A program made the position numbers and the translations under genes. This document shows positions 17,623 through 63,369 of a stretch of 64,000 nucleotides of DNA, one piece after another. The notes beneath the pieces were generated by a model. It saw nothing but the letters and a program-made list of their open reading frames with translations, was not told where the DNA came from and did not search any database. The DNA comes from Felis catus (taxonomy: Eukaryota), in the NCBI RefSeq assembly GCF_018350175.1, contig NC_058376.1, positions 806,001 through 870,000 of the forward strand, in the 5' to 3' direction. Position 1 is the first letter of the stretch. Every line of letters starts with the position of its first letter.

Positions 17623-19739
17623 ACATCACCTCGGCCATCTGAGGACCCCAGGCTATGGAACCGTGGTCCGGAGAGATTGCGAGCAGAGCTGGTCGGAATG
17701 GGGTGCGGCAAAGCACAGAGGCAGGTTTCCAGAAAGCTCTCCAGGGTCCTCGGCATCCTGCCGCTTTTGAATCAAAGCCCTGATCTTTAAAATGCCAGCG
17801 ACGTCACAACGTGGGCCAGAAACACAAACATCTCTGGGCGTCCACCACCACCTGAAATATTGTCCATTTCTTGTAACTTGAGGTGGCTGGAAAGAATCAG
17901 GGGCGAGGGCTCCAAGAGGGTGGCTCCTGGCCCAGACTTTGTGTTTGGGGGGTAAACGCCATGCAGACAAACCTTGGCTGAGGAGGGGACAGGTATGGGG
18001 ACCCCGTTGCAGGCACTGCTGTCCCGGTGATGCCGCCTCAGGGCGCTCGAGTCCACCTGCCCCTGGGGGAGCACCTGCGACCCTCCGCTCTGCCTGAGGG
18101 CTCTGTCCTGCCCCACGGGCACCTCCTCTCCTGCCAGCCGGGGCCAGCCTGCCACCCGGGAGCGCGGATACCCCGACGGCCCTGGGGACAGAGCCGGTCC
18201 GGGTACGACACCGTCTCCCAGTTGGCCTGAGCGCCAGGCCGCCACGGTGCTCCCCCCTCCTCCTCCGGGCTCCCTGTACTCGTCATCCTGCGGGCTCCGT
18301 GGGCCCAAGTCTTCCTCTGATCAGGGACCACCCCGTGTCCAGTCTCCACACGCTGGGACTTGGGGCAGGTCGTCTGGACCTTCCGGACTCGTGCTTCCTT
18401 GCAGGGACATGTGCAGAGGCCTCCCTCCCAGACTCGCCAGAGGGGACCCAGCACAGGAAGATTCAGACGCCGTAAAGGAAGAGGCCACGTGGGGGACCCC
18501 GTCGGGTCGCGCTCACCGATGAGGTCCCGGTGTTCGGCACACGGCAGGGACCTGAGATGGCCGGCTGAATTAGGGAAGGAGGGAGGGAAGGTGGGAGTGA
18601 AACCACAGAAGCCGGGTCCACACACCAGGTCGGGTCAGAGGTCAGGTCAGAGGGCGTCACAGCTCGGGCCCTGGAAGGGGGCACGGGACACGTCCTTCTG
18701 TCCCTCCAGCGCTGACCTTCCTTCACGTGGGACCTGCTGACGTCCTGGATCGTCTCCACCTCCTCCGCAAACAACGCTGAGTGTTCCCGGAAGGGGGACG
18801 GCAGGCAGGGGCCGAGGAGGGGCTTCCGGAATCCTGTGCCCTGGGGGACTCTGGGACAGCCTTCCAGGTGGCCCCTTGTGTCCTCCAGGCACCAGGCCAC
18901 GATTCCACCTCATCTGTCGGGGAATGCGACAAGCCATCTAGAAGGCCCGTTTCGTCCCCGTGTCACAGATGGGGACACCGAGGCTAATAGCACAGCCTGG
19001 GTCACTAGTAAGACGAGCTAGGTCAGGAAGCCCATGTCCTTGACTTTGGATTGTCCTACCCGCAGGCCTGCGTCTTGGCGTCCTGGGGCTCGGGGTCCCT
19101 CTTCCTGGGGAACCCCACCACCCGCCGAAGGCCCGCCCCCCCTGAACTCAGGGGAGCAGAGCTGACCAACCTGCCTGGGGCCGGGCATGGGGACCGGGGA
19201 AGGGCCGACCCCAGGCTCTGTGGGCTCTCCCAGTCCTGGGCCAGCCGGTCCCCTGCAGGACGAGGACTTCTCGCTGGGGACCTGCTGGGGCCTCTGCTGC
19301 CTCACGTTGTCACCTGGGCTGCCGGTCCCCAGACCAGAAACCTGCCGGTCTGAAGGTGCCCAGCGCTGCCTCCCTCGGGTTTCACTTGCCCGAGTCCCTC
19401 CCCGGGACGCCCCGCATCTCTGACGCCGGCTCCCATGGACTGGGACGGGTCTGGTCTCCATCCCGGGGAACGCACGGGCTTTGGAGCGTTATTTGGCCCA
19501 GGGGCCTGTGAACCTTTCTGGCCCTGGGTCGTGAGGGATGCTCTCCCCTCTGCGGTGTGACCGTCCGGCCTTCTGCGTCTCCCGGCTTCTGTCTGGGCCA
19601 CGGGGGGACCAGCCGTGTCCTGGCTGGCGTCAGGCTGTGGTGTCACAGCACAAACGGGGGTCTCCACCCCGAGACCGTGCCCATTGTCACCGAAGGGGCC
19701 TCTTTTTTCCCACCTAATCTTTAATCCATTGTGATTTCA

Positions 19740-20070
19740 ACATCAAAGGAGAAACAGTCTATTTCAAGCGACCACAGAGTACGAAAATGAATCTGTCCCG
19801 TCTGAAAAGTCGGTGCAGACCCGAAGGTATCTCTTGAGAGATTCCACTTGTAGGAAACCTCCAGAGTAAGTAACGGAACACGGAGAGAAAGCGGACTGGG
19901 GGTTCCCAGGGCCTGGCGGGGGCACGAATGGGGAGGGCGGGCTCCGGGTACACGGTGTCCCTCGGGGACTGAGATACTCTGCACCAATATTCTGTGGCGT
20001 GGTTCACAGCGTCGTGAGTGTACCCAGCGCGCAGGAATTGCACAACGTAAAGTAAATAAAAATTTTACTG
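19740..20070 (+). mobile_element. Ancient L1M 3'-end relic inside the duplicated unit (copies near 29317-29647 and 58273-58603)
   Basis: GATTCCACTTGTAGGAAACCTCCAGAGTAAG...GGGGGTTCCCAGGGCCTGG...GGGTACACGGTGTCCCTCGGGGACTGAGA...GAATTGCACAACGTAAA follows the L1MB/MC 3' pattern with GC-shifted substitutions. Confidence 0.65.
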
Positions 20071-20269
20071 AGGATTAATATGGATTATAAACCAACAGTG
20101 AAGAAATAAAGTCACAGCTAAAAAGAAGAGGAGAGAAAGGATAAGGGAGAAGAGGAAGAGACATTGTGGTAGGGTGTCAGGGTCGGGGATTGGAACAATT
20201 AGAAATAAAACAAACATCCCGTGTAGGCCCTCAGGCCCTTGATCAGTGGCTGGCATCCATGTGGGAGCA

Positions 20270-20420
20270 AGGGCGGTGGCAGGGGCAGGGAGAAGGGCGG
20301 TGGCAGGGGCGGGGGCAGGGGCAGGGAGAAGAGAGGTGGCAGGGGCGGGGAGAAGGGCGGTGGCAGGAACGGTGTTGGGAGCAGAAGCAGGAACAGTGGA
20401 AGCAGCAGGAGCAGAAGCAG
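20270..20420 (+). repeat. Low-complexity GGGCGGTGGCAGGGGCAG / GCAGGAGCAGAA tandem repeat (copies near 28967-29117 and 58803-58953)
   Basis: Visible short imperfect tandem units. Confidence 0.75.
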
Positions 20421-21446
20421 GACCCAGCTGACTCTGCCCAGGTGCCCGCTGTCCCCGCACAGGTCCCAGGTCACCTGCCGGCTGCCGGGCCCCTGCAGGA
20501 GTCGCCCCAGACGCCACCCCCGCCTCCAGAGCCGCCGAGGCCCCCGAGGCTGTTGGGTCGGGCTCTGGAGCCGCACCGGCTTCTGCTCCTGCCCCGGACT
20601 CTTGAGAAGGAAACAGAGTGATGGTTGCAGCGGCTCCAAGGGCTCAGGGTGACAGGAGAGAAGGTCCCCCCGCGCCGGCCTCTCCAGGGGCCTTGCAGAC
20701 ACACAACACACCCCAGGGCCTCCCGAGAAGCCGCGGCCAGGAACCCACACCAGGACCTCTGGCCCCCTGCGGCCCGCAGCCCCGGGGGCTCTCAGTCTCT
20801 GCTCCTGGCCCCACACCAGCCCCCGGGGGCTCCTCCCTGGGTGGCCCAGCACCGCCCGGGGCCCCATGCACCCCATCCCCCACCCCCAGCCTTCTCACCC
20901 TCGGGCTCGGGCTCTGGGGGCTCCGGGTCCTGGTCCCAGGACCGCTGAGCCAGGACCCTGTGGAGGGGCCCGGGCGGTGAGGGAGGCCCTCCCAGGCCAT
21001 CTCCAGGCCCTGCTTCCGGAGACCTCCGTGCGGCCACTCTCTCCCCGGGTCCAGGGTGGCCCTCCTGGGCGACGGGGCACACGCACACCTCTGTAGGGCA
21101 GGTGAATCGGGATCCCGACAGTCGCCTCCCGATTTCATCCGTTGATTTCTGTAAAGACAGTGACCCGCGGCCGGCCCGGAGGCATCACAGCCCCGCCCGG
21201 CCATCCTCAGTGTCCTTCCGCCCTCTCCCCCTGCGGCTCCCAGATCCGACACAGACCTGAGTGCGCACAGCCCTGCGCCCGGGACACAGTGACATCCACC
21301 TGCAGGCTCGGGATGAATCTTGGGGACAAGAGGGCCACCCCAGCACACTCTGTCCCTCCCAGCCAGCCTTGACCTGGAGTGTGAGCATGGCCTGCCCACC
21401 AGGCATCTGACCCCTTCATCAGCCTGCACCTGCTCACGTGGGCCCT

Positions 21447-21448
<2 letters not shown>

Positions 21449-21480
<32 letters not shown>
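21449..21480 (+). repeat. (AC)16 microsatellite (copies at 27907-27938 and about 59982-60013)
   Basis: Direct count; same length in all three copies. Confidence 0.9.
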
Positions 21481-21482
<2 letters not shown>

Positions 21483-23337
21483 GAGGGGCCGTGGGGCCGC
21501 ACAAGTCAGATCAGAGCGGTGTCGGGCTGGACCGACTGTCTCTGGGGCTCCCTGGGTTACCTTTGGCTCCCTGCGAGCTAGAGACCTGAGGCGTCCTGTG
21601 CACGACCTGACCCACTGTCTCCGGGGTCGGGGAGCGTCGCAGCCACGGGCTCCCCTGAGCCAGCAGCCGCGGGACACGGGCACACAACAGGAGAACATGT
21701 TCGTCAGGCGAAGGTGTCCCAACGAATGAGCCCAGTCGGGCGCTGTCTCCACAATGTGGGTGCCTGGTGACCCGGGTTCTGACTTCACTTGGGCTTTGTG
21801 ACCAGAGAGGTGAGGTCACTGCCAGGTCACTGGGCTTTGTGACCAGAGAGGTGGGTCCCCTTACCCATCTTCCTCCTCCTACAAGAGCCCCTCCCAGGCT
21901 GCGGAGGGCTCCCCTCCACCCCATGCCCTGTCCCTACAGTGACACCAACACAGCCCAGCCACATCCCCGCGAGGCCTGGTGCAGCCGGTGTGGCAGCTCT
22001 GGGGACACAGAGCTGGGTTCAGACCTGGGTTTTCCTCCTGACCAGTGCCGGGACCCCGCACAGACCCTGTGCCTCCCGGGGCCCCCCGGTCTCCCCGTCT
22101 GCACAGTGGGGTCCTTCTGGAATCCACTTCTAGGGACACCATCAGGGAGACACCTGTAGACTCGTCCCGTGCCTGCTACCCCATGAGGCTCGTGGGCACA
22201 CGTGGCCGTGGAAAGATGAGGAAGGGGTGGGCCTGGCACGGAACACACTCACGCGGGCCTGGGTCTGCTCCGGGTCCAGGCACAGCCACCCCTCCTGCCT
22301 GGGTCCCGGGCCCGGGGGAAGGTGGAGGTGAGCTCGTTCAGACCCTGTGCCCACCCGACACGCCCCTCCAGGGGCTCCATCACATTTGGGCCCGGGTCCC
22401 AGCGCCTGGGCTGTGGCTCCCAGCCTTCCCGAATCCTGGTCACACATCCCTGTGTCACCCCCTCCCCTTCCGGGTGGACGGCCCGTGTGACCGCGTTCTA
22501 AGGGCTAGAAGACGATGACGGGCTGTCACTTCCAGGCCGATTCATGGAATTTCTGCTTTCCTCTCTCCGGGGTCCATTCTCTGTGTCTGCCTCGGACTCG
22601 GTCTGTCTCTGTGTGTCTCACAGGAGCAGGGCCTGTGGGCTCCAGGGTCCAGGTGACGACCCTCAGAAGCCTCCCTTGTGGCCCGTGTCCCTCCCCCGGC
22701 CCGGTGCTCAGCTCCCTCACGAGGCCTCCTCACCCCAGGCAGGGCACTGCCTGGGGAACCACTTCCTAATGAGGACCCGAGGCTCCAACAAGGAGGGTCT
22801 TCACCTCGGTCCCCACACCAGGGTCCACTGCTCGGCCACGTGCTGCAAACCCAGGACCTCGGTCCTCCAAGCCCCCAGGCTGCCCTCTGCTCAGAAGGAC
22901 CTTGAGGGAGTAGGAAGCATTTTCCCAGGAGGGGAGAACAGAGGGTCAGGGATGAAGATCCCGGGACACAGACTCGTCTATGAGCCTGTGGGACCCTGGG
23001 GACACTGTCTACGCAGCCCAATTTACGGAGGAGGACGCTGAGTCCTTCTGTGCCCTAGCCCCGTCCACACTTCCTACTTCCAGGTGCCCAGTGTGGTGGA
23101 CACAGGACCCCAGACCCCGTCCTCCCCTAGTTCCCGCCAATCCCCCCAGACATCTTGGGGACCCCCCGGCCCTCAGCCGGCACATCTCCCCTCCCCATGC
23201 TGTGGGTCCCGGGCTATTGCCAGGAATCCTGATGTCCCTGCCCATGGCCCCACTGCCTCCAGCCTTTCTCTTCTTTCCCCCACGTTACCCACCCCCTCCC
23301 AGTGTGGACTCCCCTCTGACCCCCAGCGGGGCAGTCC

Positions 23338-23340
<3 letters not shown>

Positions 23341-23374
<34 letters not shown>
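23341..23374 (+). repeat. (TG)17 microsatellite (mirror at 26013-26046; (TG)13 at 61874-61899)
   Basis: Direct count. Confidence 0.9.
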
Positions 23375-23375
<1 letters not shown>

Positions 23376-25657
23376 ACCCGCCTGTCTGGAGATGCCCAGT
23401 GGTCACAGCCTCACACAGACGGGGTGGATAGGGACCCCCGAGCATCTCAGGGGGTCTCGTTCCCAGGGAGAACCCCACGGGGGGATAGAGGCTGGCCTAG
23501 GACTGGAGACCAGCTCTGCTCCTCGGACGCCGCACACCTCACTTGTCCTGGGCCAGTCCTTGCCTCTCCTGACCTCAGTGTCCCCACTGTCCCTGAGGGT
23601 CAGACGGGGAAGTGCATCAGCGTGGCCTTGACCCAGGCTGTCCTCCAGGGGTAGGTGGAGGGGAGGTGCCCCGGCTACACAGGCCTCCCTCCCCAGGGCC
23701 GGCCAGGTCTGTGTCGTGGCCACGTGTGCAGACAGAAGGGGAATGAAATGGATGATGCAGAGTGATCACTACCACGGCAGGAACAAGGCGGGTACCGGTG
23801 ACTGATGGAGCACCCATACAGAGCCCGGATCGCAAACTCAGTGGGGAAGAGGAGAGGGGACACCAGTGAGGTACCCCCCCACAAAGCCATCCAGCGTTTC
23901 CATCCAGCCACCAGGGCTTGGCATGGCCCCAGGAGCAGTGGCCAACCAGACTCCTGACACAGGTCACTGTGGCCTCTTTCTCAGCAGTGGGGATCCAGGG
24001 GCCGGGAAACCCAGGGTGCAAGGGTGCTTGGGGCTACCTCCTCCCTTGGAGGAAAGAGAACAATAGAGATGTTCTCTGGGGACTCCCCAGGGCAGGAAAA
24101 ATGGGAGGAGCCCTCCCCCAGCCCAGACAACTCTTCCCCATGACTATTTCCCTGCTGGTGGTGGGAGGCGTTGAGGGAGTGTGGTACTGGCTTTAAACAG
24201 TGACTCTACACTTGAATGTTAGGTTCAAATTCTGCTTCTACTAGAACCTGAGCTTTGTGGCTTGGATCTTTCACTTGCCAGGCTGAGGGGATACACATGC
24301 TCTCAAGGACTCTCAAACGGAGATCTCTCGCAGGGTCCTGAACCTACTGGACCTGGGGAAGGGGTGGACCGGTCCCCTCCCTGGTCCTGATGGAGACCTT
24401 TCCTCCCAAAGACAGGTTCGTTCCTGGGCGTGATCCTGGGCCAGGGCTGGAGACAGCCCCTCACTCCCCAGGGGCTCTGGGGGCCGAGGGGGCTTGGATA
24501 CAAGCACAGCTCACTGCACCTCTCCCCCCAACCAGTGTGCACTGCCTGGGCAGGGACCCCCCGAGCCAAGGGCAAGCCTTCCCCTTCCGTCTGACCACAC
24601 ATTCTTCCCAGAGCTTGACGATGGCCTGTTCTTCTTGGCCATGGGGTATTGCTGGCCGACCAGGAGGGAGTCCAGCTGGTAGGGCAGGTGTAGCTACCGG
24701 ACACAGGGACACCTGTGAGCTACCGGGAGCCACATTCTGGTCTCTGTCCCCGGGCCTGCCCGGCAGCTGGGATCCAGGTGCCCTAGGGGTCAGCAGACAA
24801 CAGGGTCTGGGCTGAGCAGGAGGCCATGACCTCAAGGAGACTCCACTGGGCCCTCTCCTGGCTCCTGCCTAGTCTCACCTGTCCTCCCTGAGGGGCTCCA
24901 GGGCCCGGATCCAGGCCCCTTACGGCTGCTGGGGCTCCAGCCTGGAAAGATGTATAGCCTCTGGGGCAGCTGGACTTGTTGGGGCTGGAGGGAGGGCCGG
25001 CCACCGACAGGGCCTCGGCTGGGGAGGATGCGGGCCTCGTGGGGGTGAGGATGGGGCCGGGACCCGGTGCTGGGTCACGGCTCATGTATACAAAGGGCTG
25101 AAATCACTGAGTGCCCGGGGGGCGCCGAGTTAAAGTAGCCCCCTGACGCTTGGTCATCCTGGAGGTGGCCCCAGGCCTCCCCAGGCCGCTTCCCACCCTC
25201 TGACTCTGCCCAGGGCTGCAGCCAGGCCCAGGCTGGACCTCTGTCCAAGGTCCTGCCAGGAAGACAAGGCAGAAGGAGGAAAGGAGAAGGGGGAGGGGCG
25301 GACCGACTTCTCCCTGCCCTGAGTTGGCCTCCCTGCTGCCTGCAGGAGCCCTGGCCCAGCCATGCCCCAGGGTCCATGCACCTGGACCCTGGGGTAGAGT
25401 CTGCGGTCCAGGCCAGCTGGGTGGGGGTGGGTGTATTCACTGGCCTTCGTGTCCCCAGATGTCCAACCCACCTGGCCTTGCACCCTGAGGTGTGCCTGGC
25501 TGGGGCAGGCATGGTTCTGGGGCGCAGGAGAGGTTCGGGTCCCAGAGCCGTTGGTGGAGGCGGGAACATAGGGGACCAGCCAGGTGGGGAGCGATTGGAT
25601 TCATGCACGTCAGCGTTGCATCTGGATCATCTACAGGTGCTGAGTGCAGGTCCCTGG

Positions 25658-26011
25658 GCACACCTGGCCACGACACAGACCTGGCCGGCCCTGGGGAGGG
25701 AGGCCTGTGTAGCCGGGGCACCTCCCCTCCACCTACCCCTGGAGGACAGCCTGGGTCAAGGTCACGCTGATGCACTTCCCCGTCTGACCCTCAGGGACAG
25801 TGGGGACACTGAGGTCAGGAGAGGCAAGGACTGGCCCAGGACAAGTGAGGTGTGCGGCGTCCGAGGAGCAGAGCTGGTCTCCAGTCCTAGGCCAGCCTCT
25901 ATCCCCCCGTGGGGTTCTCCCTGGGAACGAGACCCCCTGAGATGCTCGGGGGTCCCTATCCACCCCGTCTGTGTGAGGCTGTGACCACTGGGCATCTCCA
26001 GACAGGCGGGT

Positions 26012-26049
<38 letters not shown>

Positions 26050-27904
26050 GGACTGCCCCGCTGGGGGTCAGAGGGGAGTCCACACTGGGAGGGGGTGGGT
26101 AACGTGGGGGAAAGAAGAGAAAGGCTGGAGGCAGTGGGGCCATGGGCAGGGACATCAGGATTCCTGGCAATAGCCCGGGACCCACAGCATGGGGAGGGGA
26201 GATGTGCCGGCTGAGGGCCGGGGGGTCCCCAAGATGTCTGGGGGGATTGGCGGGAACTAGGGGAGGACGGGGTCTGGGGTCCTGTGTCCACCACACTGGG
26301 CACCTGGAAGTAGGAAGTGTGGACGGGGCTAGGGCACAGAAGGACTCAGCGTCCTCCTCCGTAAATTGGGCTGCGTAGACAGTGTCCCCAGGGTCCCACA
26401 GGCTCATAGACGAGTCTGTGTCCCGGGATCTTCATCCCTGACCCTCTGTTCTCCCCTCCTGGGAAAATGCTTCCTACTCCCTCAAGGTCCTTCTGAGCAG
26501 AGGGCAGCCTGGGGGCTTGGAGGACCGAGGTCCTGGGTTTGCAGCACGTGGCCGAGCAGTGGACCCTGGTGTGGGGACCGAGGTGAAGACCCTCCTTGTT
26601 GGAGCCTCGGGTCCTCATTAGGAAGTGGTTCCCCAGGCAGTGCCCTGCCTGGGGTGAGGAGGCCTCGTGAGGGAGCTGAGCACCGGGCCGGGGGAGGGAC
26701 ACGGGCCACAAGGGAGGCTTCTGAGGGTCGTCACCTGGACCCTGGAGCCCACAGGCCCTGCTCCTGTGAGACACACAGAGACAGACCGAGTCCGAGGCAG
26801 ACACAGAGAATGGACCCCGGAGAGAGGAAAGCAGAAATTCCATGAATCGGCCTGGAAGTGACAGCCCGTCATCGTCTTCTAGCCCTTAGAACGCGGTCAC
26901 ACGGGCCGTCCACCCGGAAGGGGAGGGGGTGACACAGGGATGTGTGACCAGGATTCGGGAAGGCTGGGAGCCACAGCCCAGGCGCTGGGACCCGGGCCCA
27001 AATGTGATGGAGCCCCTGGAGGGGCGTGTCGGGTGGGCACAGGGTCTGAACGAGCTCACCTCCACCTTCCCCCGGGCCCGGGACCCAGGCAGGAGGGGTG
27101 GCTGTGCCTGGACCCGGAGCAGACCCAGGCCCGCGTGAGTGTGTTCCGTGCCAGGCCCACCCCTTCCTCATCTTTCCACGGCCACGTGTGCCCACGAGCC
27201 TCATGGGGTAGCAGGCACGGGACGAGTCTACAGGTGTCTCCCTGATGGTGTCCCTAGAAGTGGATTCCAGAAGGACCCCACTGTGCAGACGGGGAGACCG
27301 GGGGGCCCCGGGAGGCACAGGGTCTGTGCGGGGTCCCGGCACTGGTCAGGAGGAAAACCCAGGTCTGAACCCAGCTCTGTGTCCCCAGAGCTGCCACACC
27401 GGCTGCACCAGGCCTCGCGGGGATGTGGCTGGGCTGTGTTGGTGTCACTGTAGGGACAGGGCATGGGGTGGAGGGGAGCCCTCCGCAGCCTGGGAGGGGC
27501 TCTTGTAGGAGGAGGAAGATGGGTAAGGGGACCCACCTCTCTGGTCACAAAGCCCAGTGACCTGGCAGTGACCTCACCTCTCTGGTCACAAAGCCCAAGT
27601 GAAGTCAGAACCCGGGTCACCAGGCACCCACATTGTGGAGACAGCGCCCGACTGGGCTCATTCGTTGGGACACCTTCGCCTGACGAACATGTTCTCCTGT
27701 TGTGTGCCCGTGTCCCGCGGCTGCTGGCTCAGGGGAGCCCGTGGCTGCGACGCTCCCCGACCCCGGAGACAGTGGGTCAGGTCGTGCACAGGACGCCTCA
27801 GGTCTCTAGCTCGCAGGGAGCCAAAGGTAACCCAGGGAGCCCCAGAGACAGTCGGTCCAGCCCGACACCGCTCTGATCTGACTTGTGCGGCCCCACGGCC
27901 CCTC

Positions 27905-27940
<36 letters not shown>

Positions 27941-32356: not shown

Positions 32357-32358
32357 TT

Positions 32359-47638: not shown

Positions 47639-49009
47639 GGCCGCCTGGGGTCCCAATGCAGGAAGCGTCTGTGGGGCTTCTGTTACCTCTTCCTTCTGCT
47701 GTGTTTCTCTCCGTTCACCTTAGTCTCCCTGAATGTTTTGTCAGGAATCTCCATGCGAAAAAACAGCAAATAGGATTACTCTGAAGCGTGGGGTGATATT
47801 TTTGTCCTTGTGTGTCATCTCCGGCTGCGAGGCGTGGGAGAAGCTGGCAGTCAGGGGCCCTCCTCAGCCACGTTCGAGGCCCGAGGCTCCCCAGGCTCCA
47901 GGGCAGTGGGAGCTTAGCTGCACGTCTGTGCCGGGGCTGGCTGGTTTACCTGTGTCCACCTTCGCCACGGGGCTCACCAAGGGCCGGGTGGTGGCTCATC
48001 AGGGGTCAGTCCTTAGACCTGGCAAGACACGTGGCTTTATCTTTCCTTCACCTTCCGCATCTCGCTTGTTTTGGTGTTAGAACCCTTGGAAGCCGACTGG
48101 CAAAGCCATTGGAAATGTAGTGTGCCCATTCCACCCCCACCCCCGGGGGATCCTGCCGGCCGCCTCCCCTTGGATTTCAGGGTCTCAGATCCAGCCAAGC
48201 CCTCTGCCTTCTGCTCCCAGGTAGGGGCTCAGATGATCCAGAGGTGAGAAACCCAGGCCCACAGAGAACTCTCACGGAAACTTGGGGGATGTGCAGCTCC
48301 CGGCCCGGGTCATGGAGTACAGAGGTGGGGGGCAGCAGGCCAAGCCTGGCCAGAGAGTGGGCGAGTCCAGACAGGTGGAGCGGAGGGGCAGAAGGAACAG
48401 GACATTCCGGGCTGGCTGCTGACTGTGTCGGGAGCAGGAGGCCAAGGCCAGCAGAGCAGAATAACGGGTGGTCAGGAGGGAGTGGGAGGTTTTTTTTTTT
48501 TTTCCTATTTTTAGTGATTGAGACAAAAGATCTGAAGTGCAGCTTCTAGAAGAACTGTTTGTGCCTTCCTTCCCTTGGTCTTGACTTTGGCCTGCTGCCA
48601 GCCACGGTTAAAGACCAGGGTCTCTGGCCTTCCCAGACTGAGCAAGGGAGAGGGTTGAATCCCCAGTGGTGTCAGTGGTTTGACCGGGGTTAGGATGCCC
48701 ATTCTGGAACCGCCCAACAGAAGGAAGCAGACAGAAGCAGGGATCGGCACGGCAGTGTTGATGCTCCCCGGGGCCCAATCCCCATTCTCCAGCGCATCGG
48801 GGCGGGGCACAGGGGCCACCACTGAATAATAATGCCACCCCCTCGGGAAATGTCACCACCTTGCAAGGAGACAGGCCAGCGTGGTGTCTTGGTGGTCAGT
48901 GGCCGCCCACAGTGACCCACGCAGAGACATTTGAACGGGTTTACATGGGCCGGAGGGACTGCGCAGACCCGGGCCCCGCGGCAGGTGTGCTGGTGCAGAC
49001 TTCCGGAAG

Positions 49010-53483: not shown

Positions 53484-54880
53484 AGGGCCAGGGACCCGGG
53501 TGGAGGCAGATGCCCCTCGGGGTGAACCTGGGGTCCCCCAGTGCTCTTCCTGGTTTTCAGTGAATGCTTCGGCCTCCAGCGGGGACAGTGCCCACTGTGT
53601 CCGGACCAGGCCGGCCAGGCACTGGCAACCTGCTCAGCCACCTGGGTGCTGGGTGCTGGGTGCTGGATGCTGGGTGCTGGGCAGGTGCTCCCAGGGACTC
53701 TTGCTGTGTTTCCAAATAAAGCGATTCCACAAACCGCTAGAGTTGCCTCTCACTCGTGTGCTGGGCTGGGCTCGGTGTCGAGGGCGGACAGAGATGGACA
53801 GGGCGCCGCTCTCGTGGGGCGCGGGCCGCACAGGGAGAGGATAGGGTGCGGTGGGCACACCCCGGCTGAACCACACGGCACAGAGAGCCAGCTCGGGGGC
53901 GAGAGGGCCGGCCTGCACTTGTGTCCCTCGGCAGAGTCCCTCTGGGTGAGGGGACCCGCGCACACGGGTCTCGGCCGGGGAGTGGGGGCTGGGCCGGAGG
54001 CAGCCGCTCCCCGGGGAGGGGTCACACAGCCCTGGGCCGATGGGAGGGTCGTCTGCCCGAGTGAGAGCAGGCCTGCGGTTCGAGTTCGGACAGGGTGCTG
54101 GGCCGACGAGGTGGGCACTGGTGCCCACCGGGGTGCCAGGCTGGGGCACCTCGGTGTCCGGGGCAGGGGCACCTCGGTGTCCGGGGCAGGGCTCTGGGGC
54201 AAGGGCAGGGGCCCAGGATTGCAGAGGCCTGGGCTGTGGGGCCTCCTGTGGTCTGGTGGGGCCCTGCCTGAGGTCCTGGCAGAAGCTGGGGTGGGGGCTG
54301 CCCATCCCTCACGGCGAGGGGCGGTGCATACCAGGAAGGGGGGCAGGCGGGCACATACAGGAGAGTTGCATGCACATGCACACACACCCCATGTGCCTGT
54401 GCACACACACCGGCTGCCCCCTCTGTCAACACCTGCTCAGGACAGATCGCCCGTCAGCACCTGCTCAGGGCGACCCTGCGGTCGGGTCCTGCTTCTCACA
54501 CTCGGATAACCTTATGAAGTGACTCATAGTGACACCAGCTGGCTGTTGTCTCTCTTCCGGGGGTGGGGAGCTACTGTGAGAGGCCCAGGGCTCCCACTGT
54601 GAGGAGGGACGGCTCCAGGGGACACGTGGTGACCTGAGGTCGGGGGGGGGGAGTGACCTCGGGAACACGATGGCTTTGTCTTCAGGGGCCTCCCGGGCAG
54701 GTGGCACCGACCAGGCTGAGCACCTGGGCCGGCCCTCTGTGCCCGGGGGAGCCCCCCGGCCTCCCCATCGGCCCACCCCAGGCCGGCTCAAGGCTCCGGG
54801 TTGGTTGGACGGCCACGGCAGGGTCGGTGGGTGGGGAGATTTAAACTCAGTGCCCTGGTGGCCGAAGAGGGAGGCTGGAG

Positions 54881-54991
54881 ATGGGACCGGGGAGGCTGGT
54901 GTCCACGCTGGTCCTGGCGTTCGTGCTGGCCATGGGGTCCCGGCCACAGGAACAGCTGCCCAGGGAGGCCCACAGCCTCAACTGGAACAAG
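54881..54991 (+). pseudogene. LCN10: Lipocalin-10 exon 1 only; gene truncated in intron 1
   Basis: [37 protein letters not shown] then GT, versus human LCN10 ...PRESHALNWNK. TTTAAA at 54840-54845. I found no FSGFWY-type exon 2 downstream, and duplicon sequence starts at 55599. Confidence 0.85.
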
Positions 54992-55598
54992 GTAGAGCCG
55001 TAGGCCTGCTGTCCCCCGAGCCAGGCACCCAGGCCGTGGGGGCCAGGGATCATCCATTTAGGGATCGCTCCCTAAAAATCTCCCAAGGGCCTTCCCGGGG
55101 CCCTGGGCAGGGCCCCGAGGCTGGCAGGAGTCTCCGGCACAGGCCCCTGCCGGCCCAGTGGGACTGCTCCCCCGGCCTCTCCCAGAGCAGCTGCCGGCCA
55201 TGGGGGTGGGTAAGGCGCAGGGCCCCAGGCAGGTGCACCCAGAGATGCTAGGTGGGCAGAGGTGGAATCAGCAGGACGTGTTCTGGAACGGGGAGATGGC
55301 TGGCAGGTGGAACCCTCCAGCGGGGGTGGCTGTGGGCACAGGCTGAGCGGGCCGTGGCGGTGTCTGGGACGGTGGGTTTGCGGCAGGAAATCGGAGGGAT
55401 GGGGCCCCCCCGGAGGCCCTGCACGGGAAGGAAGTTACAGCACACGGTTCCCAGTGCCCAGCCCCCGCACCCACAGACAGTCTGGCGTCTGCCCACCAGG
55501 GCCCCTAACCAGGGGCGTGCAGGTCCGGGGGGCTGGATGCGGGCTGGGTGTCTGGGAGGCATCCCTTGTCCAGTGGGTTCCGGGAACCTGGGAAGGAG

Positions 55599-56731
55599 CC
55601 CCTGAGTTCAGGGGGGGGGCCTTCGGCGGGTGGTGGGGTTCCCCAGGAAGAGGGACCCCGAGCCCCAGGACGCCAAGACGCAGGCCTGCGGGTAGGACAA
55701 TCCAAAGTCAAGGACATGGGCTTCCTGACCTAGCTCGTCTTACTAGTGACCCAGGCTGTGCTATTAGCCTCGGTGTCCCCATCTGTGACACGGGGACGAA
55801 ACGGGCCTTCTAGATGGCTTGTCGCATTCCCCGACAGATGAGGTGGAATCGTGGCCTGGTGCCTGGAGGACACAAAGGGCCACCTGGAAGGCTGTCCCAG
55901 AGTCCCCCAGGGCACAGGATTCCGGAAGCCCCTCCTCGGCCCCTGCCTGACGTCCCCCTTCCGGGAACACTCAGCGTTGTTTGCAGAGGAGGTGGAGACG
56001 ATCCAGGACGTCAGCAGGTCCCACGTGAAGGAAGGTCAGCGCTGGAGGGACAGAAGGATGTGTCCCGTGCCCCCTTCCAGGGCCCGAGCTGTGACGCCCT
56101 CTGACCTGACCTCTGACCCGACCTGGTGTGTGGACCCGGCTTCTGTGGTTTCACTCCCTCCTTCCCTCCCTCCTTCCCTAATTCAGCCGGCCATCTCAGG
56201 TCCCTGCCGTGTGCCGAACACCGGGACCTCATCGGTGAGCGCGACCCGACGGGGTCCCCCACGTGGCCTCTTCCTTTGCGGCGTCTGAATCTTCCTGTGC
56301 TGGGTCCCCTCTGGCGAGTCTGGGAGGGAGGCCTCTGCACATGTCCCTGCAAGGAAGCACGAGTCCGGAAGGTCCAGACGACCTGCCCCAAGTCCCAGCG
56401 TGTGGAGACTGGACACGGGGTGGTCCCTGATCAGAGGAAGACTTGGGCCCACGGAGCCCGCAGGATGACGAGTACAGGGAGCCCGGAGGAGGAGGGGGGA
56501 GCACCGTGGCGGCCTGGCGCTCAGGCCAACTGGGAGACGGTGTCGTACCCGGACCGGCTCTGTCCCCAGGGCCGTCGGGGTATCCGCGCTCCCGGGTGGC
56601 AGGCTGGCCCCGGCTGGCAGGAGAGGAGGTGCCCGTGGGGCAGGACAGAGCCCTCAGGCAGAGCGGAGGGTCGCAGGTGCTCCCCCAGGGGCAGGTGGAC
56701 TCGAGCGCCCTGAGGCGGCATCACCGGGACA
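55599..56731 (+). repeat. Third copy of a 1.13-kb arm segment; direct repeat of 30233-31367, inverted relative to about 18020-19154
   Basis: Offset about 25365 bp; about 7 differences seen by eye. Confidence 0.95.
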
Positions 56732-57029
56732 ACTGTGCCGTGCCAGCCCCACTTCCCCAAATTCAAGACCAAGACCCTATCACCCTGTCCCACCCCCGAG
56801 AGCAGAAACCGCTTCTGTCCTAGTTCCTTTGTGGATGCTTCCATGCCTGCCCTCAGCACCCTGTCTGCTCCCCGCTGTGTGCACACACCTGGATCACGAG
56901 AGTGAGCCCCGGACCCCACCCAGGAGGTGGTACGGCCCCTCACCCACCCCAGCAAGGGAGAGCGCCGTCCCCATGGCCCTACTCCCCCTAAGAAGACACG
57001 TAAGCCATATTCACCAAGGTTTTTAACCA

Positions 57030-57065
<36 letters not shown>

Positions 57066-57838
57066 CGAAGGATGGGGGCCTTGGGGACCCGCACACGAAT
57101 GTCTCCTGTGCTTTTGTGGGTTTGCTCTGGTTCTCCGGATCCTCCTCCTGGCTCCCTTGAAGTTGTCAGGCCTCTGCCCGAGTCCCTGGGTCACCCACCT
57201 ACCCTCTCCTGTTAGGAAGACGTCCAAATGCACGCCCTGCGTTTCCTCTCATGTTCCTCTCGCCTCCTAGACTTCGGTCATCAGATTTGGGAGTCGTGAA
57301 CAGCCTTTCTGTCTTCCCTCACCTGTCCTTCCACCCAGCTCTTCCCAGGCCGGCCCCGAGGCTGTCCTCGGGTTGGATTCATCTCCTCCTGGGAGGTGGG
57401 GGTCGGGTGGACAGAGGGCAGACGGTGCCGGTGGGGGCAGGAGAGGCCGTGGCCCACAGGCCGAGGGCGGGCTTGTCTGCCAGGGCCCCCGGGCGGGGTG
57501 AGCCCCGCCTGCCTCTCCTCTTTCTTACCGGGAGGCATCGTTGTCCTGAACGGGCACCAGGGAACCTGAACGAAGAGACCACTTTGCTTTGAGACAAGGG
57601 GCGGTGTGGCAAGGGCTGCAGGGGACGTTGGCCTTGGATTTGGGAAAGAGAGGCCGGCCACGCACTGCTGTCGCGTTCATGTCCTCTCTGCCCACCTGAG
57701 TGCACCTGCAGCCGGAGGGGCTGGTTCCCGGCAGGCTGGCAGCGTCCCCTGGAGTCCCCGGTCCCTCCTCTCTGCCTGAGGACGGTCCCCCGGAGACGGG
57801 AGCCCCACACCTGTCTCTGGAGACCTCTGCTTTGTCAA

Positions 57839-59979
57839 GTTGTCACCTGGGCTGCCGGTCCCCAGACCAGAAACCTGCCGGTCTGAAGGTGCCCAGCGCT
57901 GCCTCCCTCGGGTTTCACTTGCCCGAGTCCCTCCCCGGGATGCCCCGCATCTCTGACGCCGGCTCCCATGGACCGGGACGGGTCTGGTCTCCATCCCGGG
58001 GAACGCACGGGCTTTGGAGCGTTATTTGGCCCAGGGGCCTGTGAACCTTTCTGGCCCTGGGTCGTGAGGGATGCTCTCCCCTCTGCGGTGTGACCGTCCG
58101 GCCTTCTGCGTCTCCCGGCTTCTGTCTGGGCCACGGGGGGACCAGCCGTGTCCTGGCTGGCGTCAGGCTGTGGTGTCACAGCACAAACGGGGGTCTCCAC
58201 CCCGAGACCGTGCCCATTGTCACCGAAGGGGCCTCTTTTTTCCCACCTAATCTTTAATCCATTGTGATTTCAACATCAAAGGAGAAACAGTCTATTTCAA
58301 GCGACCACAGAGTACGAAAATGAATCTGTCCCGTCTGAAAAGTCGGTGCAGACCCGAAGGTATCTCTTGAGAGATTCCACTTGTAGGAAACCTCCAGAGT
58401 AAGTAACGGAACACGGAGAGAAAGCGGACTGGGGGTTCCCAGGGCCTGGCGGGGGCACGAATGGGGAGGGCGGGCTCCGGGTACACGGTGTCCCTCGGGG
58501 ACTGAGATACTCTGCACCAATATTCTGTGGCGTGGTTCACAGCGTCGTGAGTGTACCCAGCGCGCAGGAATTGCACAACGTAAAGTAAATAAAAATTTTA
58601 CTGAGGATTAATATGGATTATAAACCAACAGTGAAGAAATAAAGTCACAGCTAAAAAGAAGAGGAGAGAAAGGATAAGGGAGAAGAGGAAGAGACATTGT
58701 GGTAGGGTGTCAGGGTCGGGGATTGGAACAATTAGAAATAAAACAAACATCCCGTGTAGGCCCTCAGGCCCTTGATCAGTGGCTGGCATCCATGTGGGAG
58801 CAAGGGCGGTGGCAGGGGCAGGGAGAAGGGCGGTGGCAGGGGCGGGGGCAGGGGCAGGGAGAAGAGAGGTGGCAGGGGCGGGGAGAAGGGCGGTGGCAGG
58901 AACGGTGTTGGGAGCAGAAGCAGGAACAGTGGAAGCAGCAGGAGCAGAAGCAGGACCCAGCTGACTCTGCCCAGGTGCCCGCTGTCCCCGCACAGGTCCC
59001 AGGTCACCTGCCGGCTGCCGGGCCCCTGCAGGAGTCGCCCCAGGCGCCACCCCCGCCTCCAGAGCCGCCGAGGCCCCCGAGGCTGTTGGCTCGGGCTCTG
59101 GAGCCGCACCGGCTTCTGCTCCTGCCCCGGACTCTTGAGAAGGAAACAGAGTGATGGTTGCAGCGGCTCCAAGGGCTCAGGGTGACAGGAGAGAAGGTCC
59201 CCCCGCGCCGGCCTCTCCAGGGGCCTTGCAGACACACAACACACCCCAGGGCCTCCCGAGAAGCCGCGGCCAGGAACCCACACCAGGACCTCTGCCCCCC
59301 TGCGGCCCGCAGCCCCGGGGGCTCTCAGTCTCTGCTCCTGGCCCCACACCAGCCCCCGGGGGCTCCTCCCTGGGTGGCCCAGCACCGCCCGGGGCCCCAT
59401 GCACCCCATCCCCCACCCCCAGCCTTCTCACCCTCGGGCTCGGGCTCTGGGGGCTCCGGGTCCTGGTCCCAGGACCGCTGAGCCAGGACCCTGTGGAGGG
59501 GCCCGGGCGGTGAGGGAGGCCCTCCCAGGCCATCTCCAGGCCCTGCTTCCGGAGACCTCCGTGCGGCCACTCTCTCCCCGGGTCCAGGGTGGCCCTCCTG
59601 GGCGACGGGGCACACGCACACCTCTGTAGGGCAGGTGAATCGGGATCCCGACAGTCGCCTCCCGATTTCATCCGTTGATTTCTGTAAAGACAGTGACCCG
59701 CGGCCGGCCCGGAGGCATCACAGCCCCGCCCGGCCATCCTCAGTGTCCTTCCGCCCTCTCCCCCTGCGGCTCCCAGATCCGACACAGACCTGAGTGCGCA
59801 CAGCCCTGCGCCCGGGACACAGTGACATCCACCTGCAGGCTCGGGATGAATCTTGGGGACAAGAGGGCCACCCCAGCACACTCTGTCCCTCCCAGCCAGC
59901 CTTGACCTGGAGTGTGAGCATGGCCTGCCCACCAGGCATCTGACCCCTTCATCAGCCTGCACCTGCTCACGTGGGCCCT

Positions 59980-60015
<36 letters not shown>

Positions 60016-63000
60016 GAGGGGCCGTGGGGCCGCACAAGTCAGATCAGAGCGGTGTCGGGCTGGACCGACTGTCTCTGGGGCTCCCTGGGTTACCTTTGGC
60101 TCCCTGCGAGCTAGAGACCTGAGGCGTCCTGTGCACGACCTGACCCACTGTCTCCGGGGTCGGGGAGCGTCGCAGCCACGGGCTCCCCTGAGCCAGCAGC
60201 CGCGGGACACGGGCACACAACAGGAGAACATGTTCGTCAGGCGAAGGTGTCCCAACGAATGAGCCCAGTCGGGCGCTGTCTCCACAATGTGGGTGCCTGG
60301 TGACCCGGGTTCTGACTTCACTTGGGCTTTGTGACCAGAGAGGTGAGGTCACTGCCAGGTCACTGGGCTTTGTGACCAGAGAGGTGGGTCCCCTTACCCG
60401 TCTTCCTCCTCCTACAAGAGCCCCTCCCAGGCTGCGGAGGGCTCCCCTCCACCCCATGCCCTGTCCCTACAGTGACACCAACACAGCCCAGCCACATCCC
60501 CGCGAGGCCTGGTGCAGCCGGTGTGGCAGCTCTGGGGACACAGAGCTGGGTTCAGACCTGGGTTTTCCTCCTGACCAGTGCCGGGACCCCGCACAGACCC
60601 TGTGCCTCCCGGCGCCCCCCGGTCTCCCCGTCTGCACAGTGGGGTCCTTCTGGAATCCACTTCTAGGGACACCATCAGGGAGACACCTGTAGACTCGTCC
60701 CGTGCCTGCTACCCCATGAGGCTCGTGGGCACACGTGGCCGTGGAAAGATGAGGAAGGGGTGGGCCTGGCACGGAACACACTCACGCGGGCCTGGGTCTG
60801 CTCCGGGTCCAGGCACAGCCACCCCTCCTGCCTGGGTCCCGGGCCCGGGGGAAGGTGGAGGTGAGCTCGTTCAGACCCTGTGCCCACCCGACACGCCCCT
60901 CCAGGGGCTCCATCACATTTGGGCCCGGGTCCCAGCGCCTGGGCTGTGGCTCCCAGCCTTCCCGAATCCTGGTCACACATCCCTGTGTCACCCCCTCCCC
61001 TTCCGGGTGGACGGCCCGTGTGACCGCGTTCTAAGGGCTAGAAGACGATGACGGGCTGTCACTTCCAGGCCGATTCATGGAATTTCTGCTTTCCTCTCTC
61101 CGGGGTCCATTCTCTGTGTCTGCCTCGGACTCGGTCTGTCTCTGTGTGTCTCACAGGAGCAGGGCCTGTGGGCTCCAGGGTCCAGGTGACGACCCTCAGA
61201 AGCCTCCCTTGTGGCCCGTGTCCCTCCCCCGGCCCGGTGCTCAGCTCCCTCACGAGGCCTCCTCACCCCAGGCAGGGCACTGCCTGGGGAACCACTTCCT
61301 AATGAGGACCCGAGGCTCCAACAAGGAGGGTCTTCACCTCGGTCCCCACACCAGGGTCCACTGCTCGGCCACGTGCTGCAAACCCAGGACCTCGGTCCTC
61401 CAAGCCCCCAGGCTGCCCTCTGCTCAGAAGGACCTTGAGGGAGTAGGAAGCATTTTCCCAGGAGGGGAGAACAGAGGGTCAGGGATGAAGATCCCGGGAC
61501 ACAGACTCGTCTATGAGCCTGTGGGACCCTGGGGACACTGTCTACGCAGCCCAATTTACGGAGGAGGACGCTGAGTCCTTCTGTGCCCTAGCCCCGTCCA
61601 CACTTCCTACTTCCAGGTGCCCAGTGTGGTGGACACAGGACCCCAGACCCCGTCCTCCCCTAGTTCCCGCCAATCCCCCCAGACATCTTGGGGACCCCCC
61701 GGCCCTCAGCCGGCACATCTCCCCTCCCCATGCTGTGGGTCCCGGGCTATTGCCAGGAATCCTGATGTCCCTGCCCATGGCCCCACTGCCTCCAGCCTTT
61801 CTCTTCTTTCCCCCACGTTACCCACCCCCTCCCAGTGTGGACTCCCCTCTGACCCCCAGCGGGGCAGTCCGAGTGTGTGTGTGTGTGTGTGTGTGTGTGC
61901 ACCCGCCTGTCTGGAGATGCCCAGTGGTCACAGCCTCACACAGACGGGGTGGATAGGGACCCCCGAGCATCTCAGAGGGTCTCGTTCCCAGGGAGAACCC
62001 CACGGGGGGATAGAGGCTGGCCTAGGACTGGAGACCAGCCCTGCTCCTCAGACGCCGCACACCTCACTTGTCCTGGGCCAGTCCTTGCCTCTCCTGACCT
62101 CAGTGTCCCCACTGTCCCTGAGGGTCAGACGGGGAAGTGCATCAGCGTGGCCTTGACCCAGGCTGTCCTCCAGGGGTAGGTGGAGGGGAGGTGCCCCGGC
62201 TACACAGGCCTCCCTCCCCAGGGCCGGCCAGGTCTGTGTCGTGGCCAGGTGTGCCCAGGCACCTGCACTCAGCACCTGTAGATGATCCAGAGGTGACACT
62301 GATGTGCATGAATCCAATTGCTCCCCACCTGGCTGGTCCCCCATGTTTCCACCTCCGCCAACGGTTCTGGGACCCGAACCTCTCCTGCACCCCAGAACCA
62401 TGTCTGCCCCAGCCAGGCACACCTCAGGGTGCAAGGCCAGGTGGGTTGGACATCTGGGGACACGAAGGCCAGTGAATACACCCACCCCCACCCAGCTGGC
62501 CTGGACCGCAGACTCTACCCCAGGGTCCAGGTGCATGGACCCTGGGGCATGGCTGGGCCAGGGCTCCTGCAGGCAGCAGTGGAGGTCAACTCAGGGCAGG
62601 GAGAAGTCGGTCCGCCCCTTCCCCTTCTCCTTTCCTCCTTCTGCCTTGTCTTCCTGGCAGGACCTTGGACAGAGGTCCAGCCTGGGCCTGGCTGCAGCCC
62701 TGGGCAGAGTCAGAGGGTGGGAAGCGGCCTGGGGAGGCCTGGGGCCACCTCCAGGATGACCAAGCGTCAGGGGGCTACTTTAACTCGGCGCCCCCCGGGC
62801 ACTCAGTGATTTCAGCCCTTTGTATACATGAGCCGTGACCCCGGGACCGAGTCCCGGCCCCATCCTCACCCCCACGAGGCCCGCATCCTCCCCAGCCGAG
62901 GCCCTGTCGGTGGCCGGCCCTCCCTCCAGCCCCAACAAGTCCAGCTGCCCCAGAGGCTATACATCTTTCCAGGCTGGAGCCCCAGCAGCCGTAAGGGGCC

Positions 63001-63369
63001 TGGATCCGGGCCCTGGAGCCCCTCAGGGAGGACAGGTGAGACTAGGCAGGAGCCAGGAGAGGGCCCAGTGGAGTCTCCTTGAGGTCATGGCCTCCTGCTC
63101 AGCCCAGACCCTGTTGTCTGCTGACCCCTAGGGCACCTGGATCCCAGCTGCCGGGCAGGCCCGGGGACAGAGACCAGAATGTGGCTCCCGGTAGCTCACA
63201 GGTGTCCCTGTGTCCGGTAGCTACACCTGCCCTACCAGCTGGACTCCCTCCTGGTCGGCCAGCAATACCCCATGGCCAAGAAGAACAGGCCATCGTCAAG
63301 CTCTGAAAGAATGAGTGGCCAGATGGAAGGGGAAGGCTGGCTCTTGGCTCGGGGGGGGGGTTCCTGCCC
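57839..63369 (+). repeat. Third copy of arm plus spacer: direct repeat of 19306-23729, continuing as the reverse complement of spacer 25657 to about 24547
   Basis: Offset 38533, then 38525 after a (TG)4 contraction; matching ORF translations in the track. Confidence 0.95.

Follow-up and report, generated by a model that had tools for sequence, protein, structure and literature searches.

A 46.6-kb insert within a single retroviral LTR upstream of cat COL6A1 carries a lipocalin segment copied from another chromosome

The domestic-cat window (the whole stretch of DNA analysed, 64,000 nucleotides) is DNA upstream of COL6A1, and positions 17031-63621 (46,591 bp) lie wholly within one minus-strand gammaretroviral LTR. 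Inside this block, LCN8 (with a stop codon), LCN6 and LCN10 exon 1 form a copy from another chromosome, made before the lion and cat lineages split. The preliminary description had reported three repeat pairs, (i) to (iii), around this gene cassette; what is new here is the complete LTR-bounded insert, of which these pairs are parts. The locus is probably best read as a replicative insertion, primed by an LTR and drawing on several templates, through which a gene was moved. A literature search, with most subscription papers outside its coverage, returned no earlier account of the locus.

The features at the host site and at the outer edges were the following:

1..7261, minus strand: 5' portion of COL6A1, whose start codon lies at 7261 (position, and a PDB match to collagen VI alpha-1 with E 4e-37)
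16814..17025, minus strand: L1 3'-UTR, left half of the split target (aligns to 9103-9314, an intact L1 piece in the window)
17026..17030, no strand: left target-site duplication GTCTC (comparison with the right one)
17031..17622, minus strand: full LTR, outer left edge of the insert, its CA end adjoining the duplication (LTR comparison)
63596..63621, minus strand: 26-bp remnant of the LTR 5' start, outer right edge (tile-score test)
63622..63626, no strand: right target-site duplication GTCTT, 4/5 match to GTCTC (comparison with the left one)
63627..64000, minus strand: L1 3'-UTR, right half, picking up at the left half's end (alignment to two in-window L1s)

The full LTR copy, 9,770 bp from the COL6A1 part, and the LTR remnant are thus the two edges of the block, around which a 5-bp target-site duplication (TSD) splits one element, presumably an L1. 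Compared with two other L1s in the window, the split element was contiguous (left half ending at 9314 and 51140, right half starting at 9311 and 51141). The remnant ranked first of 2,498 tiles, with a score of 36 (next 26, mean 12.8, sd 2.8). The weak spots at these edges are the single TSD mismatch in five positions and the remnant's length of only 26 bp. Blocks B, y, C and D (see below) were ruled out as native COL6A1-upstream DNA, all of them lying between the split-L1 halves. The history would have begun with a gammaretroviral LTR integrating in the L1 about 9.8 kb upstream of COL6A1, a step for which both LTR termini, the TSD and the split L1 are observed directly.

Retroviral integrase has a length requirement for its attachment sites, and the right remnant is roughly of that length; moreover, both edges of the block coincide exactly with LTR termini and adjoin a TSD. 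Integrase might then have inserted cargo DNA ended by two LTR attachment sites, the TSD dating from that insertion (composite transposition). Yet no primer-binding site (PBS) or polypurine tract (PPT) is present inside the outer ends, so no RNA intermediate fits, and recombination within a pre-existing LTR gives the same ends more simply, which leaves this reading very unlikely. The lack of PBS and PPT there, the 46.6-kb length and the 26-bp outer end also led to rejection of retroviral transduction of host genes.

The interior consists largely of repeat blocks, located by self-BLAST of the window, with identities taken from global alignments:

17031..23729, minus strand: palindrome left arm, with LTR, U, B and x inverted, then C forward (99.91% to 25658-32356)
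18020..19154, minus strand: block B, third copy, inverted relative to the other two (self-BLAST, alignment)
19306..23729, plus strand: block C, left copy, pair (ii) (99.57% to 57839-62254)
23730..23743, plus strand: 14-bp junction insert at the C/E join, probably templated from block D (match counts)
23744..24543, plus strand: block E, unconverted paralogue of the sequence past D; starts the palindrome spacer (match to 63472-63601)
24544..30081, minus strand: blocks D and C inverted, left copy of pair (iii) (self-BLAST, alignment)
25658..32356, plus strand: palindrome right arm (self-BLAST, alignment)
30082..30232, plus strand: block x, an old C-B link (C-x-B order in diverged public ORFs)
30233..31367, plus strand: block B, first direct copy, pair (i) (global alignment)
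31368..31764, plus strand: block U, flank of the provirus before integration (B-U join in P0099, P0101 and P0107)
55599..56731, plus strand: block B, second direct copy, starting at the donor breakpoint (alignment)
56732..57838, plus strand: block y, an old B-C link (B-y in P0102; y-C in P0147 and P0153)
57839..63373, plus strand: blocks C and D, right copy, common to pairs (ii) and (iii) (alignments)
63472..63601, plus strand: E-like 130 bp (E'), ending in TGAGGT microhomology with the LTR (alignment)

The three reported pairs were recovered at the positions given for them, with 99.0-99.6% identity, far above chance. Direct pair (i) (30233-31367 and 55599-56731) displayed 99.30% identity, with 6 substitutions, 2 gap columns and a longest perfect run of 453 bp; values for direct pair (ii) (19306-23729 and 57839-62254) and inverted pair (iii) (24547-30081 and 57839-63369) were 99.57% and 1259 bp, and 99.03% and 1286 bp, respectively. 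Missing from the preliminary description were the inverted third copy of B and the strongest repeat of the window, a 6,699-bp inverted pair (17031-23729 and 25658-32356) with 99.91% identity around a 1,928-bp spacer. Pair (ii) results from reflecting pair (iii) through this palindrome, so neither is independent of the other. Perfect runs across the window repeats ranged from 453 to 3,597 bp. The palindrome arms differed at 6 sites, three of which fell in the outer 40 bp of 6,699 bp (p 4e-6), and mismatches between the left LTR and the proviral LTR occurred only near the outer end of the former.

Such very high identity might suggest an assembly artefact, by fold-back or polishing, as the source of the palindrome and hence of pair (ii), and polishing could indeed raise the identity between the arms. 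However, the left arm terminates in a genuine junction of LTR, TSD and L1 and has its own inner junction, a non-mirrored 1.9-kb spacer and the 6 differences from the right arm. A public contig ORF (P0139) also matched the x-B join at 99%, though this join is present in both arms. We therefore see little likelihood in an artefact.

At the joins, E' and the LTR have the 6-bp TGAGGT in common on the right, and the 14-bp insert at the C/E join matched block D at 24592 (minus strand, 13/14) and 63321 (12/14), with two further 12/14 matches elsewhere in the window. Microhomology and templated inserts are reported as hallmarks of complex insertions (PMC5120786), and their presence here agrees with an insertion of the MMBIR/FoSTeS type. 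Within the window, the other three joins revealed no clear microhomology. The first 130 bp of block E differed from 63472-63601 by 11 substitutions.

Block adjacencies outside the window were read from chance ORFs on public contigs, two of 16 hits (P0141 and P0148) being dropped as unrelated repeats. The B-U join occurred in homologues about 10% or more diverged from the window, and B-y likewise in a diverged homologue, indicating that these flanking joins are older than the insertion; P0100 carries U without the LTR. Rfam gave no match in the 64 kb, and block C was dropped as a snoRNA host on that account. Pfam matched none of 150 ORFs (of 172 listed) from B, y, C, D, E, x, U and the region upstream of LCN8, a weak test in that genuine LCN6 exon 2 likewise scored nothing. 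A tblastn search of 98 proteins returned no match in the repeat blocks, and none of 600 pattern matches from a metagenome scan was confirmed.

Between the two direct B copies, and beyond U, lie a provirus and the lipocalin segment:

31765..32356, plus strand: 5' LTR of the provirus, TG...CA (LTR comparison)
32357..37097, plus strand: broken gammaretrovirus-like internal region without 3' LTR (domain matches of ORF pieces)
32359-32376, plus strand: PBS, which we take to be that of tRNA-Gln (follows the 5' LTR)
37079-37093, plus strand: PPT (the internal region ends 4 nt past it)
37098..55598, plus strand: lipocalin segment from the ancestral cluster, donor gene order kept (left end placed from the PPT junction)
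38582..41269, plus strand: LCN8 copy, 7 exons, premature stop at codon 143 (TAG at 40705-40707)
49010..53563, plus strand: LCN6 copy, intact 180-codon frame (180/180 residues identical to cat XP_044892334.1)
54881..55598, plus strand: LCN10 exon 1 and intron 1, cut just before exon 2 (donor-type ORFs)

Six of the 24 proviral ORF pieces matched Gag_MA, Gag_p30, RVT_1, RNase_H, rve and TLV_coat, so that gag MA/p30, reverse transcriptase, RNase H, integrase and a TLV-type env follow one another in order, with PBS and PPT, all as broken pieces. This inner provirus lacks two direct LTRs with a matching TSD: it has one LTR only, its 3' LTR being absent, and the TSD is that of the outer LTR on the minus strand. 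The left LTR was rejected as the missing 3' LTR, its flank being unlike the U-side flank and its TSD partner lying at 63622. The gene names given previously stand with some reservations: the LCN6 frame is intact, LCN8 carries its premature stop, LCN10 is represented by exon 1 only and the ERV has a single LTR.

On donor-type contigs, LCN10 intron 1 runs into exon 2 and not into the cassette's left end. The donor intron continuation was compatible, off-frame, with two LCN10-containing proteins at 38/44 and 35/44 positions (best of 20 shuffles, 0.52). Comparisons of U with the LCN10 intron or with other window flanks gave one marginal score and otherwise no match above shuffles. These data bear on the circular intermediate previously envisaged, in which a 25.4-kb circle (ERV-LCN8-LCN6-LCN10 exon 1) would have integrated at B, thereby duplicating it. 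B does flank the cassette in direct orientation and its second copy does start at the donor breakpoint. Nevertheless, the donor continues into LCN10 exon 2 instead of U or ERV, the lipocalin segment and its donor are collinear, and the circle needs a new B-U join although B-U, like B-y, predates the insertion. The outer LTR ends and TSD are also left unaccounted for, and we regard this circle as extremely unlikely.

Two LCN6 loci were recorded among cats. Window-type LCN6 occurred on contigs of 157.7-159.9 Mb in four species including lion, and the other type on contigs of 93-95 Mb in two, cat and Iriomote cat. The donor remains in place, as attested by the second LCN6 and by donor ORFs joining LCN10 intron 1 to exon 2; the segment was copied, not cut. 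Both the interchromosomal duplicate common to the cat and lion lineages and the second LCN6 paralogue had escaped the preliminary description, and because of the latter, ddPCR for LCN6 without paralogue discrimination would add the two loci together. With bear as outgroup, the relocated cat LCN6 had accumulated 1 change against 13 at the ancestral locus. All 12 rate comparisons gave p<0.03, with the exon 4/5 block in or out, for tests that have common branches and use predicted gene models. The lion window-type protein displayed two parent-type residues (N55D, N68S). At the level of predicted proteins, the relocated LCN6 is conserved and the ancestral-locus copy is decaying; the former seems to be the working copy and to have replaced its parent.

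The block map and the donor breakpoint before LCN10 exon 2 show that the insert combines several non-contiguous templates, some of them inverted. In the replicative insertion that we favour, a break in the LTR would have been mended in a felid ancestor by copying from elsewhere. The broken end would have aligned with a homologous LTR of a donor locus, whose flank served as the first template, giving U, B, x, C and E; after a fold-back, synthesis on the opposite strand would have added D, C, x, B, U and the provirus. A switch to the lipocalin cluster would have supplied LCN8-LCN6-LCN10 exon 1, and a further one, to another old paralogue, B, y, C, D and E', before the 6-bp microhomology led back into the LTR of origin. 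The product would be a 46.6-kb complex templated insertion, made in one event or several. Pairs (i) to (iii) would be old paralogous blocks united by the insertion and later homogenised, presumably by ectopic gene conversion; judged by predicted proteins, the relocated LCN6 remained conserved as the parent copy decayed.

Two steps might have led to the same arrangement. An 11-kb collinear piece (U, B, x, C, D, E') would first have been copied into the LTR, and a 38.5-kb circle (E, D, C, x, B, U, provirus, lipocalins) would later have integrated by recombination at C, producing direct pair (ii). If pair (ii) is collapsed, what remains is indeed a simple insert with two joins, one by homology and one by microhomology, and the homogenised tract between the inverted copies extends no further than the left C copy. 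Such a circle, however, would need four internal joins involving at least two loci, and its lipocalin part is unpermuted relative to the donor; we consider this course unlikely.

Divergence between repeat copies was patchy: tracts at 0.27% (12/4416) and 0.56% (5/900) adjoin others at 9.4% (14/149) and 12.5% (8/64) in the same pair, and substitutions were far rarer in C (12/4416) than in D (27/1113, p 4e-11). Patchy identity points to past exchange by ectopic gene conversion, although in the palindrome arms polishing could mimic it. Recurrent non-allelic homologous recombination (NAHR) typically involves repeats longer than 1 kb, above about 97% identity and with long perfect tracts, all of which the window repeats display, in keeping with the earlier claim that they are suitable substrates. 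On this basis, inversion or deletion alleles at the cassette are plausible. A crossover in pair (iii) would invert 27.8 kb, and one in pair (i) or (ii) would delete 25.4 or 38.5 kb, either deletion taking out the conserved LCN6. An inversion segregating or fixed somewhere in Felidae is rated slightly short of an even prospect, and a deletion at detectable frequency as unlikely. That germ-line composite transposition, with integrase inserting gene-bearing DNA of tens of kilobases ended solely by LTR attachment sites, moved the cat family's only working LCN6 into a cassette still inverting and deleting by way of its repeats is, taken as a whole, very unlikely. A short-read cat CNV list contained three chrC2 regions, none near the chromosome start; four supplementary files of PMC6288940 gave no match for six gene names, nor did files 1-13 of PMC7581003 for the genes sought, and file 15 of the latter held only intronic COL6A1 and PCBP3 rows. 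LCN6 alone is reported as dispensable for mouse fertility (PMC10506895), and selection against a deletion may therefore be weak.

The locus offers a base-resolved record in which the TSD and the two ends of the original LTR can still be read. It suggests that multi-template transfer of a gene between mammalian chromosomes can start from a lone retroviral LTR. The cat karyotype is regarded as very stable. A conserved sperm-maturation gene, LCN6, now lies between sequence-exchanging repeats and may flip or be lost, at a candidate hotspot of structural variation, 9.8 kb from COL6A1, which would escape short reads. Cat LCN6 orthology and copy-number assays must tell the two loci apart.

Several known systems resemble this locus in part. 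Gene-converting sex-chromosome palindromes have arms above 99.9% identity around a short spacer, as does the cat palindrome, which differs in being autosomal, with 6.7-kb arms, below the usual size, and no gene found in them. In HERV-mediated ectopic recombination, homologous LTR/ERV sequences pair distant loci, as proposed here for the LTR; the cat insert, in contrast, has one homologous end and a 6-bp microhomology at the other, and is an insertion instead of an exchange of arms. Bovine KIT colour-sidedness reportedly arose by translocation via circular intermediates and likewise involves a gene-bearing segment copied to another chromosome, whereas the cat donor segment is unpermuted and its flanking joins predate the event. 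The replicative template-switching insertions of chromoanasynthesis (PMC5120786) are recent clinical events, while the cat insert is common to cat lineages, lies entirely inside a single LTR whose TSD survives, and bears a gene copy by which the parent seems to have been supplanted. Finally, the recurrent FLNA-EMD inversion (HsInv0389; PMC3961182) likewise has kb-sized inverted repeats enclosing some tens of kb of genes, and tracts of high identity within older duplications. There, both orientations were genotyped, whereas in cats the second orientation is a prediction; unlike FLNA-EMD, the cat genes are also flanked by direct repeats, so that deletion competes with inversion.

Self-BLAST of the window returned five long repeat blocks, two of which were absent from the preliminary description. 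All three pairs reported there were recovered: direct pair (i) (30233-31367 and 55599-56731, 99.30% identity), direct pair (ii) (19306-23729 and 57839-62254, 99.57%) and inverted pair (iii) (24547-30081 and 57839-63369, 99.03%), with perfect runs of 453-1,286 bp. A further inverted pair (17031-23729 and 25658-32356) forms a palindrome of two 6,699-bp arms with 6 substitutions (99.91%) and a 1,928-bp spacer; that it is artefactual was judged very improbable. Pair (ii) is pair (iii) viewed through this palindrome, and the 1.1-kb block B has a third, inverted copy. A (GT)n tract counts 17.5 units in both palindrome arms (23340-23374 and 26013-26047) and 13.5 in the right C copy (61873-61899), its unit number being a marker for distinguishing C copies.

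Repeat and flank blocks (window positions)
30082-30232, block x
31368-31764, block U
55599-56731, block B
57839-62254, block C
62255-63373, block D

The left of the window is occupied by minus-strand COL6A1 (PDB match, E 4e-37), whose start codon lies 9,770 bp from the palindrome; a COL6A1 intron holds a 23-bp minisatellite (~23 copies, 3818-4357). The left palindrome arm stops at the terminal CA of a minus-strand LTR (outer LTR, 17031-17622), adjoining an L1 3'-UTR. On the right, 63596-63621 matches the initial bases of this LTR on the same strand and ranked top of 2,498 tiles (score 36, next 26, mean 12.8, sd 2.8), with L1 3'-UTR directly beyond it. The two L1 halves were contiguous against one in-window L1 piece (9103-9314 then 9311-9654) and another in-window L1 (left ending at 51140, right starting at 51141), and the 5 bases outside the LTR ends are GTCTC and GTCTT. 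It follows from these termini, halves and 5-mers that a single minus-strand LTR element integrated in a single L1: the whole of 17031-63621 (46,591 bp) is enclosed between its two ends. Insertion of a cargo DNA by an integrase is highly unlikely.

The window LCN6 translation (180 residues) is identical to cat protein XP_044892334.1, which places the window in domestic cat or a very near relative. In other mammals, COL6A1 is on a different chromosome from LCN6/8/10. This relocated, window-type LCN6 occurred on 157.7-159.9 Mb contigs in cat, lion, leopard cat and Iriomote cat with further annotations in jaguar and fishing cat; among the matches it was not seen in lynx or tiger. The other type occurred on 93.2 and 95.2 Mb contigs in Iriomote cat and cat, and was also seen in lynx and tiger. 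In size these contig groups are consistent with chromosomes C2 and D4. Since the two types occupy different contigs, the lipocalin segment is an interchromosomal duplicate, and it predates the divergence of lion and cat, about 11 million years ago. Three public-contig ORFs tracked LCN10 intron 1 until ~55600 and then departed from the window; their tails correspond to exon 2 read in another frame: with two LCN10-containing proteins, 38/44 and 35/44 positions were compatible, whereas LCN6 reached 19/44 and the best of 20 shuffles 0.52. In the donor, therefore, intron 1 leads to exon 2 rather than to U or the ERV, and the copied segment shows no permutation, so that the 25.4-kb circular intermediate proposed earlier can scarcely be credited.

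The age of the joins was read from chance ORFs on public contigs. The order C-x-B was found in two ORF clusters (11 and 14; 8/25 mapped) and three further representatives, with 79-88% identity to the window over C-x. Homologues also displayed the joins B-U (three ORFs), B-y (y, 56732-57838; one cluster) and y-C (two), as well as U without LTR (one). Both joins on the far side of B recur in homologues that differ considerably from the window; B is therefore an ancient paralogous block rather than a duplication produced by the integration. These homologues may be orthologous or paralogous. Blocks C, x, B, U and y (29700-31760, 55599-58200) have many diverged public-contig homologues in two arrangements (C-x-B-U, B-y-C), and are possibly an undescribed carnivore low-copy repeat; Pfam and Rfam gave no match on them.

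The inner provirus (5' LTR 31765-32356, internal region 32357-37097) is gammaretrovirus-like and broken, 6/24 ORF pieces matching retroviral families. It displays large internal gaps (only the second half of RT and the transmembrane part of env), and no protease match was found in 32357-37097. It stops 4 nt beyond the polypurine tract, where the lipocalin segment starts; the junction at 37094-37098 thus lies precisely 4 nt inside the missing 3' LTR, very near that tract. A public contig (P0100) has U without LTR, running into sequence absent from the window, and is the empty site of this provirus.

At the left, the full outer LTR runs into U, which flanks another insertion from this LTR family; 3/6 palindrome mismatches fall in the outer 40 bp of the outer LTR (p 4e-6), the pattern that homologous joining of two LTRs would give. 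At the right, TGAGGT is common to the LTR remnant and E' (63472-63601, resembling E, 23744-24543) at their join. The C/E join carries 14 bp matching D at 13/14 and 12/14; templating from D is suggestive only, two other 12/14 matches existing in the window. What the sequence shows directly is the boundaries, the TSD, the order of the blocks, the donor breakpoint and the patchy identity; the order and number of events we infer. The best-supported account, which we consider probable, is a break in the resident LTR repaired by copying: the broken end would have invaded another LTR by homology, copying would have folded back and jumped template twice before returning to the resident LTR through microhomology, and long-term conversion among repeats would have followed. 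A two-step history in which a 38.5-kb circle entered at C appears unlikely.

Inverted copies of pair (iii) differ at 12/4,416 sites in C and 27/1,113 in D (p 4e-11); D itself is uneven, with 14/149 and 8/64 differences at its ends and 5/900 in the middle, and E differs from E' at 11/130. About 10% is the unconverted distance between copies, and tracts at 0.3-0.6% are best read, from sequence, as gene conversion. Since the window holds no third D, the middle tract of D suggests that exchange took place across pair (iii) or with an out-of-window copy. The view that the repeats are recombination substrates thus gained support from patchy divergence. Crossover would invert 27,757 bp in pair (iii), delete 25,366 bp in pair (i) and 38,533 bp in pair (ii), and flip only the spacer within the palindrome; both predicted deletions would remove the conserved LCN6. 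COL6A1 lies near the start of C2. The available part of a cat short-read CNV study gives three chrC2 regions (18.0, 56.5 and 116.7 Mb; PMC6288940), none of them near the chromosome start, and no inversion or deletion allele was found for cats among these regions; inversions here would escape short reads. Similarly built human loci are often polymorphic and recurrent, according to the accessible text of PMC3961182.

With a bear outgroup and 152 aligned positions, private changes in the cat pair numbered 1 in the relocated LCN6 and 13 in the parent-type copy of the ancestral cluster (p 0.002); leaving out the exon 4/5 block gave 1 vs 11. Each of the 12 comparisons (three pairs, four outgroups) gave p<0.03 with and without this block, on predicted gene models and with shared branches. 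The exon 4/5 junction was disturbed in 4/4 parent-type models (P0008, P0028, P0001, P0045), of odd lengths (370, 126, 318 and 155 residues), and may hide a frameshift common to Felidae. The moved LCN6 appears to have replaced its parent. Lion window-type LCN6 (P0071, 158-Mb contig) has two parent-type exon 2 residues (N55D, N68S) that jaguar lacks, reflecting interchromosomal conversion or model error. LCN6 intron 2 holds a short L1 3' end (50975-51313), and cat gene model P0006 has sequence like 51203-51313 as an exon. Relocated LCN8 has a premature TAG at codon 143 (40705-40707), all its splice sites looking intact, and relocated LCN10 is cut after exon 1. In mouse, the LCN6 single knockout was reported fertile and a four-gene knockout subfertile (PMC10506895, in the portion available).

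No published account of this locus was found in the literature searched. The repeat prediction by itself is ordinary; the LTR-nested gene move is not. The insert lacks two features of KIT-type circular translocations, and in structure the locus resembles recurrent NAHR loci. In mechanism the insert resembles the complex insertions known from patients, displaying the three features of that class that were tested, as given in the accessible part of PMC5120786.
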